The notes below the pieces were generated by a model. It saw only the letters and a list, made by a program, of their open reading frames with translations. It searched no databases and was not told the DNA's origin. From the sequence record MT446396.1: a DNA stretch of 64,000 nt; one strand, given 5' to 3'. Position 1 is the stretch's first letter, and each line of letters starts with the position of its first letter. The stretch comes from Escherichia virus TH22. Shown here one piece after another: positions 24,791-32,158 of the stretch. The position numbers and the translations under genes were made by a program.

Positions 24791-25123
24791 ATGAACATCA
24801 AAACTTACAACGAGTTTTTAGCCGAATCCGCCATCAATGAGACCAAATCAATTGATGATAGTGAAGGCTCTCTGAAATTTGGTTTAACCAAAAATGCAGA
24901 TGGTGTTTTCTTTCAGATTGGTAATGAACGTTTTCAAACGTCCAAATATTCCAAAGCTGCAGTTGAAGCTGTCCTGAAATCTGGTGGCAAGTGGAAAGGC
25001 AAAGAAGGTACTAAAGAAATTGGTATCGCTGTTGACGGTGGTATGGCTTATTTTAAAATTGGCGATGAACAATTTATTATGTCTGCTCGCGGACGTAAAG
25101 AACTGGCAAAACTTTATAAATAA
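24791..25123 (+). CDS. Internal protein (IP)-like, CTS variant MNIKTYNEFLAE
   Basis: N-terminus resembles the T4 capsid targeting sequence (MKTYQEFIAE) with a (L/I)xE protease site; first of five tandem genes; start chosen at internal Met of track ORF. Confidence 0.65.
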   Translation: MNIKTYNEFLAESAINETKSIDDSEGSLKFGLTKNADGVFFQIGNERFQTSKYSKAAVEAVLKSGGKWKGKEGTKEIGIAVDGGMAYFKIGDEQFIMSARGRKELAKLYK

Positions 25124-25712: not shown

Positions 25713-25766
25713 TGTACATGATGGGATAACTGCAGTATAATTATCCCATCAACTACTGGAGACAAC
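25712..25766 (+). promoter_or_regulatory. Early promoter cassette (PeSL-like)
   Basis: TGTACA -35, TATAAT -10 within inverted repeat GGGATAA...TTATCCC, conserved leader CATCAACTACTGGAGACAAC then ATG. Confidence 0.7.
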
Positions 25767-27501: not shown

Positions 27502-27575
27502 GGCCCTGTAGCTGGACGGTCAAGCGAGCGACTCATAATCGCTGGATGGTGGTTCGATTCCACCCAGGGCCACCA
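27502..27575 (+). tRNA. tRNA with anticodon CAT (Met, or Ile if lysidine-modified)
   Basis: Cloverleaf folds by hand: acceptor GGCCCTG/CAGGGCC, D-loop with GG, anticodon stem AGCGA/TCGCT, loop CTCATAA, T-arm GGTGG-TTCGATT-CCACC, encoded CCA. Confidence 0.85.
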
Positions 27576-27709: not shown

Positions 27710-27785
27710 CGAGGCATAGCTCAGAAGGAAGAGCAAGGACCTTCTAAGTCCTAGGTCGTAGGTTCGATTCCTACTGTCTCGACCA
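27710..27785 (+). tRNA. tRNA-Arg (anticodon TCT)
   Basis: Acceptor CGAGGCA/TGTCTCG, D-arm GCTC...GAGC, anticodon stem AGGAC/GTCCT with loop CTTCTAA, T-arm GTAGG-TTCGATT-CCTAC, encoded CCA. Confidence 0.9.
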
Positions 27786-28162: not shown

Positions 28163-28717
28163 ATGAAACTTTTAAAATATCTAAGCTGGATTCTGTTAGT
28201 ACCACTGGATTTCATTTCAATGATTCTGGCTGTTATCCTTGCACCATTTGTAGTGCCGTTCCATAACAAAAAGACTGGTAAGCTTCCGTTCGGATTTGAC
28301 TGGATGATGACATACGATAATCCAATTGATGGTGACCGTGGTCATGTTAAACGCTGGGAAAAAATCAGAAAATGGCCGTTAGGCGTTTACTTCCAGCGAG
28401 TGGCCTGGCTCTGGCGAAACAAAGCCTACAATTTTGCTTATCATAAGCTGGGCCGCGATTGCGATTCTAAATTCCATTATAAAGGTAATCCTGATGTTGA
28501 ATCGGGCTCCCCGGATAAAGCTCACCATGGCTGGCTCTGGATGTGGAATGATAATGCATGGGGCGTGTTCGCTTCCGTACCTTATCTTAAAGTTGGTGGA
28601 ATCACCTTTTATCTGCGCGTGTATTGCGGTTGGAAGCTCAAAAGTCTTCTGTCCCGTCCTATCCCGAAAGCTATGTTAGCCTTTCATATCAATCCCTTCC
28701 GTTTTTATAAGAACTAA
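28163..28717 (+). CDS. Hypothetical membrane protein
   Basis: 184 aa, hydrophobic N-terminal segment; RBS GGAAATTTATG. Confidence 0.6.
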   Translation: MKLLKYLSWILLVPLDFISMILAVILAPFVVPFHNKKTGKLPFGFDWMMTYDNPIDGDRGHVKRWEKIRKWPLGVYFQRVAWLWRNKAYNFAYHKLGRDCDSKFHYKGNPDVESGSPDKAHHGWLWMWNDNAWGVFASVPYLKVGGITFYLRVYCGWKLKSLLSRPIPKAMLAFHINPFRFYKN

Positions 28718-28720
28718 TCA

Positions 28721-28746
28721 AACCCGCTCCGGCGGGTTTATTTTTA
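28721..28746 (+). terminator. Rho-independent terminator
   Basis: AACCCGC-TCCG-GCGGGTT hairpin followed by TTTATTTTT. Confidence 0.7.
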
Positions 28747-28764
28747 ATATTTCTTCAAAAAGTA

Positions 28765-28844
28765 GTGTACATCCGAATTGACCGGGTGCATAATGATTCC
28801 ATACTGAGTTACACACTGAATCACAAAAACTTTGGAGAAATAAA
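28765..28844 (+). promoter_or_regulatory. Early promoter cassette (B-type)
   Basis: GTGTAC -35, CATAAT -10, leader GATTCCATACTGAGTTAC...GGAGAAATAAA. Confidence 0.65.
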
Positions 28845-29270
28845 ATGAACTTTCTGACCCTGACCTCTGCATTTTCTGTTACCCGCATCACTAACAAAAT
28901 GGTTGCTGACGAAGTATGTGAAATCTGCATTCGTGAAGATGCACTTATCCATCTGACTTCAACCCAGATTGTTGCCATCGCTAAGTCCCTTAATTCTGAA
29001 CTGAAGGTAAACACCAAACAGTCAAAAGAATCCATCATTGAATTAATCCAAGCTGAAATGATTGAATTCCCAATTGAAGAAGTTAAAGAAGAAAAAATCC
29101 AGTCCAAATCTGGTAACGCCCGTGACATTTGCTTCCAGGCATTTGCAGAAATTGATATGAATGATAATGCAGCTCGCCGCGCTCTGATTGATGTTCTGGT
29201 TACCACCCATGATATCAAAAAGACTGTTGTTCAGTCATATGCTTCCAACTTCCGCAAAGCTCAAAAATAA
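28845..29270 (+). CDS. Hypothetical protein, paralog of 29723 (shared C-terminal domain)
   Basis: C-terminus ICFQAFAEIDMNDNAARRALIDVLV...VVQSYASNFRKAQK closely parallels the 29723 protein. Confidence 0.7.
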   Translation: MNFLTLTSAFSVTRITNKMVADEVCEICIREDALIHLTSTQIVAIAKSLNSELKVNTKQSKESIIELIQAEMIEFPIEEVKEEKIQSKSGNARDICFQAFAEIDMNDNAARRALIDVLVTTHDIKKTVVQSYASNFRKAQK

Positions 29271-29281
29271 TTGAGAAAAGT

Positions 29282-29352
29282 GTTTTACTTCCAGGTGGGA
29301 TAGTGTATAATTATCCCATACTGAGTTGCCAAATAAAACACTGGAGAATAAA
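29282..29352 (+). promoter_or_regulatory. Early promoter cassette (hybrid type)
   Basis: GTTTTAC -35, TATAAT -10 in GGGATAG...TATCCC inverted repeat, B-type leader ending CTGGAGAATAAA. Confidence 0.65.
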
Positions 29353-29649
29353 ATGTTTAACGCACCTGCATGGCACGCTACCCAAGCTCAAGAAGAAAAC
29401 AAAGCAATCATTTCTGCTAAAATTGAAGCTCAACTGAATGAATTGTGCGAAACTGCTTCTGAAGAAGTTGTTGCAATCATCAAACAGTATCCTGCATCCA
29501 ACTATTCTCTGGCATGCATTAAAACAGAAATGGTTAACTTATGGCGCAAGAACAAGAAAACTTTCTTGGGTATGCAGTATCAAGCAATTGCATCTGCAGT
29601 AGTAAACATGTATGACTTTGAAGTTTATTTCCCAACTTCTGAAAATTAA
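29353..29649 (+). CDS. Hypothetical protein
   Basis: Start at ATG after cassette leader (internal Met of track ORF); 98 aa. Confidence 0.6.
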   Translation: MFNAPAWHATQAQEENKAIISAKIEAQLNELCETASEEVVAIIKQYPASNYSLACIKTEMVNLWRKNKKTFLGMQYQAIASAVVNMYDFEVYFPTSEN

Positions 29650-29650
29650 T

Positions 29651-29722
29651 GTGTACTTTGGAATTTGACTAAGGCATAATGATTCCATACTGAGTTACCA
29701 AATAAACAAACGGGATAATAAA
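29651..29722 (+). promoter_or_regulatory. Early promoter cassette (B-type)
   Basis: GTGTAC -35, CATAAT -10, leader GATTCCATACTGAGTTACCAAATAAAC. Confidence 0.65.
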
Positions 29723-30166
29723 ATGAAAACTTCAAAACTGGTTAAGTACGTTAAACTGGCATTAAACAACTCTTCTGAAGCTGAAGCACAATCCGCAGCA
29801 CGTATGTTCTTCAAACGTCTGACAGCTGAAGGTATTTCATTTAACCCGGCAGTATTTGGTATCACTCGTGGCGAAGCTGTTAAACTGGCAACTCTGGCAG
29901 GTAAAATTTTTAAAGGTCTGAATGATGGACAGGTTAAAGCAGAAGTTAAACCTACTCCTAAAGCTGAACCAAAAGCTGAGCGTAAGGCACCTAAACGCTC
30001 CGGTATGAGCAACAAAGATTTATGCTATGATATGTTCAAAACTGTTAATATGTCTAATGGTGCCGCTCGTAGGGCTGTTATTGATATGATTGTGCGTGAG
30101 TTTGGATTCAACAAAGCATCAGTTCAGTCTTATGCTTCCAACTTCCGCAAAGAATTTGAAATTTAA
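29723..30166 (+). CDS. Hypothetical protein, paralog of 28845 (shared C-terminal domain)
   Basis: C-terminus LCYDMFKTVNMSNGAARRAVIDMIV...SVQSYASNFRKEFEI; Lys/Ala/Pro-rich linker. Confidence 0.7.
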   Translation: MKTSKLVKYVKLALNNSSEAEAQSAARMFFKRLTAEGISFNPAVFGITRGEAVKLATLAGKIFKGLNDGQVKAEVKPTPKAEPKAERKAPKRSGMSNKDLCYDMFKTVNMSNGAARRAVIDMIVREFGFNKASVQSYASNFRKEFEI

Positions 30167-30174
30167 TTCAAAAA

Positions 30175-30249
30175 GGGGGTATACAAGCCCCCTGCTTTAA
30201 GGCATAATGATTCCATACTGAGTTACACAATAAAACACTGGAGAATAAA
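30175..30249 (+). promoter_or_regulatory. Early promoter cassette with -35 in hairpin loop
   Basis: GGGGG-TATACAA-GCCCCC stem-loop carrying the -35, then CATAAT -10 and B-type leader. Confidence 0.65.
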
Positions 30250-30555
30250 ATGAAATTCATCATCAACCTGGCGCTTGTTGACTTTGATAAAACTGGTAAT
30301 TTCGCATCTGCTGAAAATATGATTCGTAACACCAAGTTTAAAGTGCAAGTTCAACAGGCGGTAGCAAAAGAGTTCTTTACTGATAAATTAACTAACGTTG
30401 TTAATCACCTGAATGTGCAAGTTAAATTTACTCGTGAAGCAGAAACTACTGTTGCATTTGATTTTGACTGCCAATACCATGATGAATATGTTCGCCGTAT
30501 CCTGGATATTGTGTCTGATGAACTTTACTATGGTGTGCAGGAAAATAAAATCTAA
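30250..30555 (+). CDS. Hypothetical protein
   Basis: 101 aa directly after cassette. Confidence 0.6.
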   Translation: MKFIINLALVDFDKTGNFASAENMIRNTKFKVQVQQAVAKEFFTDKLTNVVNHLNVQVKFTREAETTVAFDFDCQYHDEYVRRILDIVSDELYYGVQENKI

Positions 30556-30559
30556 ATCA

Positions 30560-30631
30560 GTGTACACTTTAATGGGAACATGATAGTATGTTCCCTGGAT
30601 AATAAAACATTAACCAACTGAAGGAAATACC
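30560..30631 (+). promoter_or_regulatory. Early promoter cassette
   Basis: GTGTAC -35; TAGTAT -10 inside inverted repeat GGGAACAT...ATGTTCCC. Confidence 0.65.
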
Positions 30632-31225
30632 ATGAATACTTTAAAGAAACTTGTTGAATTCATCCGCTCCAAACTGGGTACTGCAATGGCAAAAAACCTG
30701 TCTATTGAAGACCAATATACTCAAGCGGCGTCTACCCTGATTGACAAGATTACTGAGCTCCAGACTGCACACGTTAAGTCTGTTAATGAAGAAAAACGCA
30801 TCCGCGAATTAGCAAATGAAAAAGACCAACTCGCCGCTTCAAAAGAGCGGGAAATCCGCAAACTGATTGCTGATGGTGCTGATGTCCAGGTCCATGCTAA
30901 ACTGGGCCTCCTGTATCGTCGCACTGCTAAACAACTTCGTAAGAAGGCAGATGATTATGTTGAAATGCGTAATGAAATTAAATTGAAAGTTAAAGAGCTG
31001 GATGATTCTCGTCAGGAACTAGCTGTTAAACTGGAATACATCCGCGAAACCCGTAAGGTATCTGCCCTGGGTATTGCGACTGCAGATGATGTTGTTGAAA
31101 TCGCTGCATTGACTAAGATTGATATTGAAGACACCCTGATGCGTGTTGAAACCTTCAAAGGTCCACAGGTTGGTGTGGATACCACGTCAGCTGACATTGA
31201 AGAATACATCAATTCACTTAAGTAA
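30632..31225 (+). CDS. Hypothetical coiled-coil protein
   Basis: 197 aa rich in E/K/R/L heptad-like sequence. Confidence 0.6.
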
Positions 31226-31231
31226 GATAAA

Positions 31232-31250
31232 AGGGGGCTTTGCCCCCTTA
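31232..31250 (+). terminator. GC hairpin, possible weak terminator
   Basis: AGGGGGC-TTT-GCCCCCT hairpin after the 30632 gene; only a short U-run. Confidence 0.4.
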
Positions 31251-31269
31251 ATTGGGAGAGGAGAATATT

Positions 31270-31824
31270 ATGACTTCATACGATAATCTTATATCAAATG
31301 TAGACTGGTTTGGTGGTAGTGGCCTTGCTACTGAAACTAATACAGTTCTTTATAGAATCCGTGGTGACTTGGGTTATTCCAATGATTTCTTAAGAAGAAC
31401 AACAAGTCGCGGCGATACTACCAAATTGCCTTTTATTTTTGCTTTAGCTGAAGACCTTTCTTTCGCAGATGCCTTGGAAATTATTGACGTAAATCTGGGT
31501 ATTCAACGAGTGGAATTCGCTGGACTACGTTATTCAGTATATGCTTTAAACGAGAGCAATGATTGCATACTTCTTAATATGGCAGATGATGATTACCATT
31601 TAGTATGTTATGTGGCGCTAGAAAATGGTGATGTATTTGGAATGGTTGACCGACGGCCAGCTTATACTGATATTAAAAATTATGATAAAGCTGAGCTTGC
31701 TATTTTGACTAATGAGTACACATTAGAATGTCATAAACAAAAACGAAAGCTTAATCGTTTTATTACTGAATGTCGTGAATATGCTAAAGGGGTTCAAAAT
31801 GCGAACGCTATATCTGCCAAGTAA
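31270..31824 (+). CDS. Hypothetical protein
   Basis: Start at MTSYDNL after GAGGAGAATATT RBS; 184 aa. Confidence 0.6.
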   Translation: MTSYDNLISNVDWFGGSGLATETNTVLYRIRGDLGYSNDFLRRTTSRGDTTKLPFIFALAEDLSFADALEIIDVNLGIQRVEFAGLRYSVYALNESNDCILLNMADDDYHLVCYVALENGDVFGMVDRRPAYTDIKNYDKAELAILTNEYTLECHKQKRKLNRFITECREYAKGVQNANAISAK

Positions 31825-32158
31825 ACCAGAAAAATTTGTATATGCAGACAAAATTGATAAAGACCTTATGCCTCCATTTGGGGCTCTGTCCATGTGCATC
31901 GTTGGGGTTATAATGATGGTGCTTTGTGGGGATATGGGTATCATTAGTGTTGGAGCCGCCTGGGCACTAATAATTGCAGCTCCTTTTATTACAGTCCTGG
32001 GTATGATTTTGATAAATGTGTGGCATCAAAATCATATGAATAAAGGATACCGTGGACGAGTTAAAGAGTGGGAACAAAAATGTGTTTCCCTACAAGAAGA
32101 GCACAAAATTAAATGTGCCGAAGAATTTATTAAGGAGGTTCGTAATGGAACGGCCTAG
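31799..32158 (+). CDS. Small membrane protein, FIKEC-tail family member 1
   Basis: Start at MRTLYL after AAGGGG RBS; one or two TM segments; C-terminus ...CAEEFIKEVRNGTA. Confidence 0.5.
   Translation: MRTLYLPSKPEKFVYADKIDKDLMPPFGALSMCIVGVIMMVLCGDMGIISVGAAWALIIAAPFITVLGMILINVWHQNHMNKGYRGRVKEWEQKCVSLQEEHKIKCAEEFIKEVRNGTA

Follow-up and report, generated by a model that had tools for sequence, protein, structure and literature searches.

Two neighbouring genes of Escherichia virus TH22, here called A and B, encode proteins of 141 and 147 amino acids (aa) that carry the same kind of C-terminal domain (C-domain) on different N-terminal modules. They lie in a stretch of 64,000 nucleotides (nt) of this phage (sequence record MT446396.1), hereafter the window, which on sequence grounds belongs to Gaprivervirus, the T4-like group of phages VR7, SP18 and CJ20 (97.7% identity to Escherichia phage CJ20). 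A reading made from the sequence alone had attributed the pair to domain shuffling by the promoter cassettes in front of the genes. We find instead two layers of modularity: the gain and loss of whole genes by way of cassettes is recent and seen between strains, whereas domain recombination is old and independent of the cassettes. The complete explanation that we prefer, and hold at somewhat better than even odds, is that A and B are old two-module genes, that cassettes move whole genes, and that the shared domain serves as a targeting module.

A shared C-terminal domain on unrelated N-terminal modules

Sequence comparison identifies the C-termini of A and B as paralogous, that is, of common origin. 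BLASTP aligned the two proteins with 44% identity over 73 aa (E = 5e-18), and local alignment gave a Smith-Waterman score of 141, compared with 29.3 ± 5.2 in 5,000 shuffles (z = 21.6), a permutation test that rules out chance similarity. With the VQSYASNFRK motif removed, the score was still 77 (19.5 ± 4.0 when shuffled). When each C-domain was searched by tblastn against all six frames of the 64-kb window, the sole match was the other copy (E ~ 1e-13; next match E > 0.3), and the N-terminal halves showed no similarity to each other in a permutation test (p = 0.08). The sequence-only reading had described a paralogous pair with a common C-terminal domain, different N-terminal halves and a promoter cassette for each gene (Table 1). 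All of this was confirmed, the similarity also by alignment statistics; the motif that it quoted was essentially right, and the open reading frames (ORFs) do lie at the positions given, on the + strand. It was silent on X98, a 98-aa gene with its own cassette that separates A from B, and on the single short patch of DNA likeness between A and B described below.

The two C-domains are about 49% identical. Over 24 family members, helix 1 has an invariant Cys and an invariant Phe, helix 3 has an invariant V-Q-S-Y, and S, N and R are almost unchanged; the helix 3 consensus VVQSYASN[F/Y]RK is nearly invariant through the family (KTVVQSYASNFRK in A). AlphaFold2 models built on family alignments (mean predicted local distance difference test score, pLDDT, of 84 for A and 74 for B) predict one fold for both copies, with three helices whose boundaries correspond. 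According to these models, the C-domain is a three-helix bundle of about 50 residues linked flexibly to unrelated N-modules, with a short, low-confidence linker in A. A BFVD search with the A model recovered family members only, namely the B-type protein of Morganella phage MP1 and the stand-alone VR7ORF277c. The whole proteins differ in charge. A is acidic to neutral (isoelectric point, pI, 5.7) and B strongly basic (pI 10.0, net +13); A-type proteins mostly have a pI of 5.2-6.6 (2/8 have a pI of about 9), and B-type proteins a pI of 9.5-10 with a net charge of +8 to +13. Taken by itself, the C-domain is mildly basic, at +1 to +5 in 18 of the 20 members tabulated.

By sequence searches, the C-domain is undescribed, confined to phages and rare. 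A profile of 17 C-domains retrieved 13 true clusters from 1.84 billion representative proteins, the other five matches being long repeat proteins. Profile searches of Pfam (24 members), NCBIfam and PADLOC returned nothing above threshold, and neither the defence and anti-defence systems of PADLOC nor the named families of NCBIfam matched; the HrpF, PBP_like and CT847 profile matches were noise. A full-text literature search with the motif peptide found no paper, and a search of the VR7 literature found nothing relevant. A, B and their relatives already have database entries, as hypothetical proteins and in PHROG families, and the shared domain itself is undescribed. A and B match phrog_9997 (E = 1.5e-71) and phrog_18416 (E = 6.1e-92) end to end. 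PHROGs splits the C-domain into three families of unknown function, phrog_9997 (A), phrog_18416 (B) and phrog_17275 (stand-alone), and the C-domain of each cross-matches the other two.

The family has four architectures: A-type, B-type, a third type with a different helical N-terminus (clusters P0029 and P0035), and stand-alone. Full-length A-type proteins were found in Erwinia phage RF1 (56%), MP1 (45%), Acinetobacter phages ZZ1 and 133 (42-45%) and Salmonella BP63-like phages (~31%); the Salmonella and E. coli carriers are 52-kb Rosemountvirus-like phages with a divergent C-domain. Full-length B-type proteins occur in RF1 and MP1 (52%) and in seven metagenomic clusters. One B-type variant of 198 aa, with an insert of about 50 aa, is encoded on a metagenomic T4-like contig (L016 1764-2360) between genes of the T4_MRH and Mod ADP-ribosyltransferase families, a genomic location unlike that in the window. 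The stand-alone copy (71-75 aa) lies outside the window in CJ20 and is present in all Gapriverviruses searched, between gene 52 and motA and immediately upstream of the latter, with asiA nearby; its C-domain has the A-type signature TVVQSY and is closest to A. Modules have also been lost. The stand-alone protein of Providencia phage PSTRCR_127 (cluster P0036) is encoded by an A-type gene minus its N-module through an internal deletion. In VR7, a 1.9-kb deletion (window 29912 to 31831), with an overlap of about 10 nt at its junction (L006 2658-2667), has taken out the B C-domain, ORF101, ORF197 and the greater part of the ORF after them, and the 68-aa VR7ORF145c that is left contains no more of B than its N-module (residues 1-62).

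The B-type N-module also occurs in Yersinia phage P744 (ORF038) and Serratia phage Serbin (gp042), fused there to a different C-terminal module, here called C', which is evidence of domain-level recombination in the family. C' comprises about 50 aa (L..LC...G....ARRKLR....GW.F), is not in Pfam, and occurs on two or three neighbouring proteins whose N-domains differ, namely, besides ORF038 and gp042, P744 ORF036 and ORF040 and Serbin gp039; the N-domain of P744 ORF036 is annotated and weakly scored as Rho_N-like, and one other C' protein has a longer N-domain. The C' genes of these 42-kb phages (P744, L017 1803-3898; Serbin, L018 2486-4222) adjoin Sak4, helicase and nuclease genes. A comparison by hhalign gave no support for homology of C' to the C-domain (P = 0.03, probability 1.6%).

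Mean C-domain identity was 58% within the A-type, 54% within the B-type and 43% between the types, and in a neighbour-joining tree of 47 columns the C-domains clustered by architecture and not by phage (an A clade, with the third type attached, versus a B clade). Because both architectures are full-length in other genera and the C-domains group by architecture, both fusions are old; the duplication is old because the C-domains are only about 49% identical and their DNA is unalignable beyond a 31-nt patch. The sequences thus place the domain duplication and both fusions before the divergence of several phage genera. The genes also keep company. The order is A-X98-B in the window, gp120 (B)-gp119-gp118 (A) in MP1, 59 (A)-60-61 (B) in RF1 (46 kb, not T4-like) and A-77 aa-B in an RF1-like contig (L014), and A and B are adjacent in a T4-like contig (L013); in L015, A is followed by a gene of the third type and not by a B-type gene. 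The genes lying between A and B in these contexts are mutually unrelated. Judged from this synteny, A and B have been inherited or transferred together as neighbours since fusion. RF1 gene 60 (L009 3941-4444) ends, by eye, with a motif resembling that of HNH endonucleases (HVVPL..G...GLHVHYNLQYLP...N..K); if it is such an endonuclease, a homing-type insertion splits the RF1 pair.

A putative common targeting module

In the mechanism that we propose, A and B are ancient genes of a T4-like phage, each transcribed separately and presumably early, and each protein is a "head on a tether", a C-terminal bundle joined through a flexible linker to an unrelated N-module. The shared domain would act as a common targeting module. 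The polar residues of helix 3, assumed to face outward, would bind one ligand, most likely nucleic acid, as a homeodomain-like helix-turn-helix does, and each of the two N-modules would deliver its own activity to that shared target at an early stage of infection.

A nucleic-acid-binding, homeodomain-like helix-turn-helix is the likeliest role for the domain, at clearly less than an even chance, because of weak in-register homeodomain matches and the basic B protein. Profile searches of PDB sequences returned the ATBF1 and Lhx4 homeodomains (E = 0.011-0.4), with helix 2, the turn and helix 3 in register (homeodomain GLkKRVVQVWFQNtR, family nldKRVVQSYASNYRK). Comparison of the C-domain with nine homeodomains by hhalign gave P = 6.9e-4 (probability 27%), versus P = 0.12-0.27 for control pairs. 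With the B model, Foldseek retrieved the Exd/Ubx, MATalpha2 and ZHX1 homeodomains (E = 5.8-8, probability 0.18-0.28, TM 0.43-0.59 on the target); the Pfam Homeodomain profile (PF00046) had no match at E <= 1 among the 24 members. The position of a B-type gene between mrh-like and mod-like genes (L016) and the high pI of B-type proteins (9.5-10) were counted for the nucleic-acid role.

Several points weigh against this role and the explanation built around it. The homeodomain similarity is below threshold and was picked after a database-wide search, the homeodomain alignment given to hhalign was a hand-typed set, and Foldseek gave no significant match in the PDB (E of at least 0.96 for A and at least 2.5 for B). 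A C-domain net charge of only +1 to +5 and acidic A-type proteins are unlike typical DNA-binding homeodomains. For the A N-module, the predicted helix-loop-helix at aa 39-74 is the sole fit to SAP/Rho_N, and a SAP/HeH/Rho_N reading of it was rejected (hhalign P = 0.077, probability 0.7%, with a hand-typed set of five sequences; no Pfam Rho_N match to A). The C-domain tree, with its 47 columns, carries no bootstrap, and A-type genes without a B-type gene in Acinetobacter and Salmonella phages mean that pairing is not obligatory. Finally, the early expression of A and B is presumed from promoter type.

Two further profile matches concern the same proteins. A TAL-effector match of the domain profile (whole-chain E = 1.4e-10) sums 23 repeats of at most 3 bits each and is an artefact. 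In the B N-module, the motif KYINLALNNSSEGEA..AAR resembles the helical hairpin of DUF2786 (PF10979), with a best E of 0.043 among 24 members (several at 0.04-0.17) and 12-13 bits against a gathering threshold of 23.9, too low to establish that the module belongs to that family.

Nearly as likely, and equally tentative, is that the C-domain binds protein, either docking both products on one highly conserved host protein (for example, RNA polymerase or another core machine) or heterodimerising acidic A with basic B into a single two-subunit effector. This reading comes close to the nucleic-acid role because the charge of the domain is low, A proteins are acidic, and the pairing of acidic A with basic B is conserved, such neighbours being found in at least four phage lineages. 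It also agrees with the lack of a significant match to any DNA-binding family and with the parallel design in P744 and Serbin. Next to the stand-alone copy is motA, with asiA close by, and one B-type gene is flanked by mrh-like and mod-like genes; these neighbours are all RNA-polymerase modifiers, but gene neighbourhood in T4 early regions is weak evidence. The A-type genes that occur without a B-type gene also count against a protein-protein module, and with hosts from Acinetobacter to Escherichia, any protein target must be very conserved.

We regard as doubtful the more far-reaching proposal that A and B form a conserved two-component early effector, in which a phage-specific homeodomain-like module co-targets the partners on DNA or RNA or heterodimerises them, the pair having moved together between unrelated lineages, the T4-like Straboviridae and the 46-kb Erwinia phages, and the design recurring with another tail module in P744 and Serbin. 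If this were true, that recurrence would point to a general diversification of effectors around a common targeting domain.

The 31-nt patch and the promoter cassettes

At the DNA level, likeness between A and B is limited to a 31-nt patch that encodes VQSYASNFRK and is identical at 30/31 positions; the remaining domain DNA is unalignable. Within the patch, 9/10 codons are identical between A and B, compared with 5/12 at conserved residues in the rest of the domain (Fisher p = 0.026). A patch of this kind, standing out from unalignable DNA and with such an excess of identical codons, is what ongoing short-tract gene conversion between A and B, or a functional element at the nucleotide level, would leave. 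We consider such concerted evolution unlikely, since in the four other genomes with both genes, the A and B patches match at 20-25 of 30 positions within a genome, no different from the mean of 22.3 between genomes, and since the window A patch matches its counterpart in A of the distant contig L013 at 28/30 positions. The patch was rejected as a conversion tract or DNA element on the former comparison, and on both comparisons invariant residues plus a shared codon preference account for most of its identity.

Every gene in this region has a T4-type early promoter in front of it, with (T/G)GTACA or TTTACT, a spacer of 16-17 nt and (C/T)ATAAT. A conserved transcribed leader follows the promoters (GATTCCATACTGAGTTAC ... 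GGAG ... ATG; 10 cassettes aligned, repeat families D1/D2). A promoter and stem-loop scan found no stem-loop upstream of B. X98 is absent from UPEC01 and RZ, and ORF101 is absent from RZ; the junctions of these insertions or deletions (indels) show an overlap of about 50 nt inside the cassette (X98 flanks, 29307-29355 and 29676-29724). The cassettes account for the whole-gene gain and loss of X98 and ORF101. PeSL elements, in the passages cited from Arbiol et al. 2010 (PMC2839356) and Comeau et al. 2014 (PMC4122927), excise or insert whole ORFs via recombination between flanking cassettes at intergenic sites.

The leader (GATT)CCATACTGAGTTAC follows the -10 of one early-promoter subclass on the + strand (window 28799, 29316, 29685, 30213, 48141 and 48727) and is also present in CJ20 (L002 8956, 30959 and 35008; L003 3499 and 18675), MP1 (L010, 6 copies), L013 and L015. 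It is kept across genera (Gaprivervirus and Gualtarvirus MP1) whose proteins are about 45-50% identical, and is more conserved than the coding sequence. It may be an RNA 5' end, a translation or stability signal, or a recombination target. As a universal partner or binding site of the domain family it was rejected, being present in Gaprivervirus, MP1, L013 and L015 and absent from the RF1-like, Acinetobacter and Salmonella carriers. A second cassette subclass, TATAATTATCCCATCAACTAC(TGGAG), occurs at 25733, 26031, 26321, 37830, 44612 and 58596 (repeat families D3-D5); in it an inverted repeat, GGGATAA ... TTATCCC, puts the -10 in a potential hairpin loop.

The leader of A carries an extension, CTGAATCACAAAAACTTTGG, that occurs exactly twice in the window plus about 71% of CJ20 (all of CJ20 lying outside the window): upstream of window gene A (28816-28835) and upstream of the stand-alone C-domain gene (CJ20 L002 35025-35044). 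It is absent from the leader of CJ20's own gene A (L001). The common extension points to the copying of a cassette together with its gene or, alternatively, to a regulatory element that both genes use. Because the stand-alone copy combines this extension with TVVQSY and closeness to A, its origin as a cassette-plus-gene copy of A that then lost the N-module is plausible from the sequences.

None of this reaches the domains themselves. A DNA comparison of the window found neither cassette sequence nor DNA similarity at the N-module/C-domain junctions of A and B. The cassettes are strictly intergenic, and the clades specific to each architecture are old. The cassette mechanism put forward in the sequence-only reading does not explain the shared domain, because the indels spare the domain boundary and DNA similarity is missing there. 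Domain recombination has occurred in this family over long time scales, and nothing links it to cassettes. Cassettes do flank every gene in the region and demonstrably mediate whole-gene indels between strains, and the unique CTGAATCACAAAAACTTTGG common to A and the stand-alone copy suggests at least one event of cassette-plus-gene copying, but a recent origin of the pair in this phage lineage through cassette-recombination domain shuffling is highly improbable, given that recombination between intergenic cassettes swaps or deletes whole ORFs (in the passages cited from PMC2839356), that DNA similarity is absent at or near the module junctions, that the C-domains, about 49% identical, fall into separate architecture-specific clades common to other genera, and that both architectures are kept end to end in distant phages.

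Genomic setting and comparison with known systems

The region 28700-30400 is 96-98% identical to that of about 34 T4-like coliphages of Gaprivervirus (Straboviridae, Tevenvirinae; VR7, VR20, SP18, CJ20 and others). The local gene order in the window and its relatives is gp3, gp1, gp57A, internal-protein genes, tRNA-Met, tRNA-Arg, the DUF7338 gene, A, X98, B, ORF101, ORF197 and, farther on, e.4/e.3, which puts A and B in the hyperplastic region that separates the tRNA genes from e.3/e.4 (Table 1).

Table 1. Positions in the window of genes A and B, their predicted protein modules, promoter cassettes and neighbouring features.
Feature	Position	Strand	Description
tRNA-Met and tRNA-Arg	27502-27575 and 27710-27785		
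DUF7338 gene, upstream of A	28163-28717		Pfam match
Terminator-like stem-loop after DUF7338 gene	28720-28739	+	8-bp stem, then T-run; with the next promoter, a PeSL-like composite
Early promoter of A	28766-28794	+	TGTACA-17-CATAAT
Leader of A	28799-28844	+	CCATACTGAGTTAC core; 20-nt extension CTGAATCACAAAAACTTTGG (28816-28835); GGAG Shine-Dalgarno
Gene A	28845-29270	+	141 aa; phrog_9997
A N-terminal module	28845-29078	+	aa 1-78; predicted three short strands, then helix-loop-helix (aa 39-74), structured part aa 3-74; pLDDT 81-94 over aa 1-70
A C-terminal domain	29115-29267	+	aa 91-141; predicted helices 92-100, 108-122, 126-140; pLDDT 82-87
31-nt patch in A	29229-29259	+	encodes VQSYASNFRK
Early promoter of X98	29284-29311	+	TTTACT-16-TATAAT; -10 in loop of inverted repeat GGGATA/TATCCC
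Gene X98, between A and B	29353-29649	+	98 aa; phrog_27242; own promoter cassette
Early promoter of B	29652-29680	+	TGTACT-17-CATAAT; then CCATACTGAGTTAC leader 29685-29698
Gene B	29723-30166	+	147 aa; phrog_18416
B N-terminal helical module	29723-29908	+	aa 1-62; predicted helices 4-15, 19-36, 42-45, 49-58
B linker	29909-30007	+	aa 63-95; Lys/Pro/Ala-rich; predicted disordered, pLDDT <50 for aa 66-91
B C-terminal domain	30008-30163	+	aa 96-147; predicted helices 97-105, 113-127, 131-145; pLDDT 90-94
31-nt patch in B	30122-30152	+	partner of the A patch
PeSL-like element after B	30174-30208	+	GGGGG/CCCCC stem-loop (30174-30193); loop holds the -35 of TATACA-17-CATAAT of the next gene
ORF101	30250-30555	+	phrog_7474

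Some GenBank names in these phages are misleading and have no support from profile searches: a B homologue is called "H15 domain-containing protein" (from the Lys/Pro/Ala linker), "thioredoxin" is annotated over the stand-alone copy in EAWsc9, and neighbours in UPEC01 are named "holin" and "host specificity protein". Elsewhere in the window, a sequence of about 30 nt, ATGAAAACTTATCAAGAATTTATT, encoding MKTYQEFI, opens several small ORFs (25767, 26065, 38330 and 38658; weaker copies at 24795 and 25130). We take it to be the capsid-targeting sequence of T4 internal proteins, and the ORFs that start with it are probably a family of internal head protein genes with a common N-terminal signal, a mirror image of the common C-terminal domain of A and B.

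Taken alone, A and B are ordinary T4-type hyperplastic content, small early ORFs of which some are paralogous. What is gained is a compact, confidently folded, phage-only domain outside Pfam, whose helix VVQSYASN[F/Y]RK offers a clean target for binding studies. That acidic A-type and basic B-type proteins stay together across unrelated phages suggests a common target, and should the domain bind DNA or a core host machine, it would define a new family of early host-takeover factors in T4-like phages. Both this undescribed domain and the conserved pairing are of modest interest and open to experiment.

PHROGs has no record of the shared domain, the third helical architecture or the synteny of A and B. 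As in the PeSL of T4-type phages, an early promoter precedes each small ORF of the hyperplastic region, some cassettes have a stem-loop over the -35 or before the promoter (28720-28739, 30174-30193), and single-ORF indels between strains have their junctions inside cassettes. Unlike the PeSL in the passages cited from PMC2839356 and PMC4122927, the cassettes here have an extra, highly conserved transcribed leader, CCATACTGAGTTAC. These PeSL-like cassettes explain the modularity of genes, not of domains.

Like a homeodomain, the family C-domain has about 50-60 residues in three predicted helices; in the alignment, its invariant N and conserved R fall at positions 51 and 53 of the recognition-helix signature WFxNxR, with Y at the core position of W48, and the basic segment before helix 1 in B recalls the N-terminal arm. 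It differs from a homeodomain in that W48, F49 and Q50 are replaced by Y, A and S, the net charge is low, A-type linkers are acidic and the similarity is below significance. A parallel in organisation is offered by P744 and Serbin, where, as with A and B, neighbouring proteins carry different N-domains on one C-module of about 50 aa, and where, unlike A and B, the genes adjoin replication and recombination genes. Different heads attached to a common tail domain, with their genes next to one another, are thus a recurrent design.

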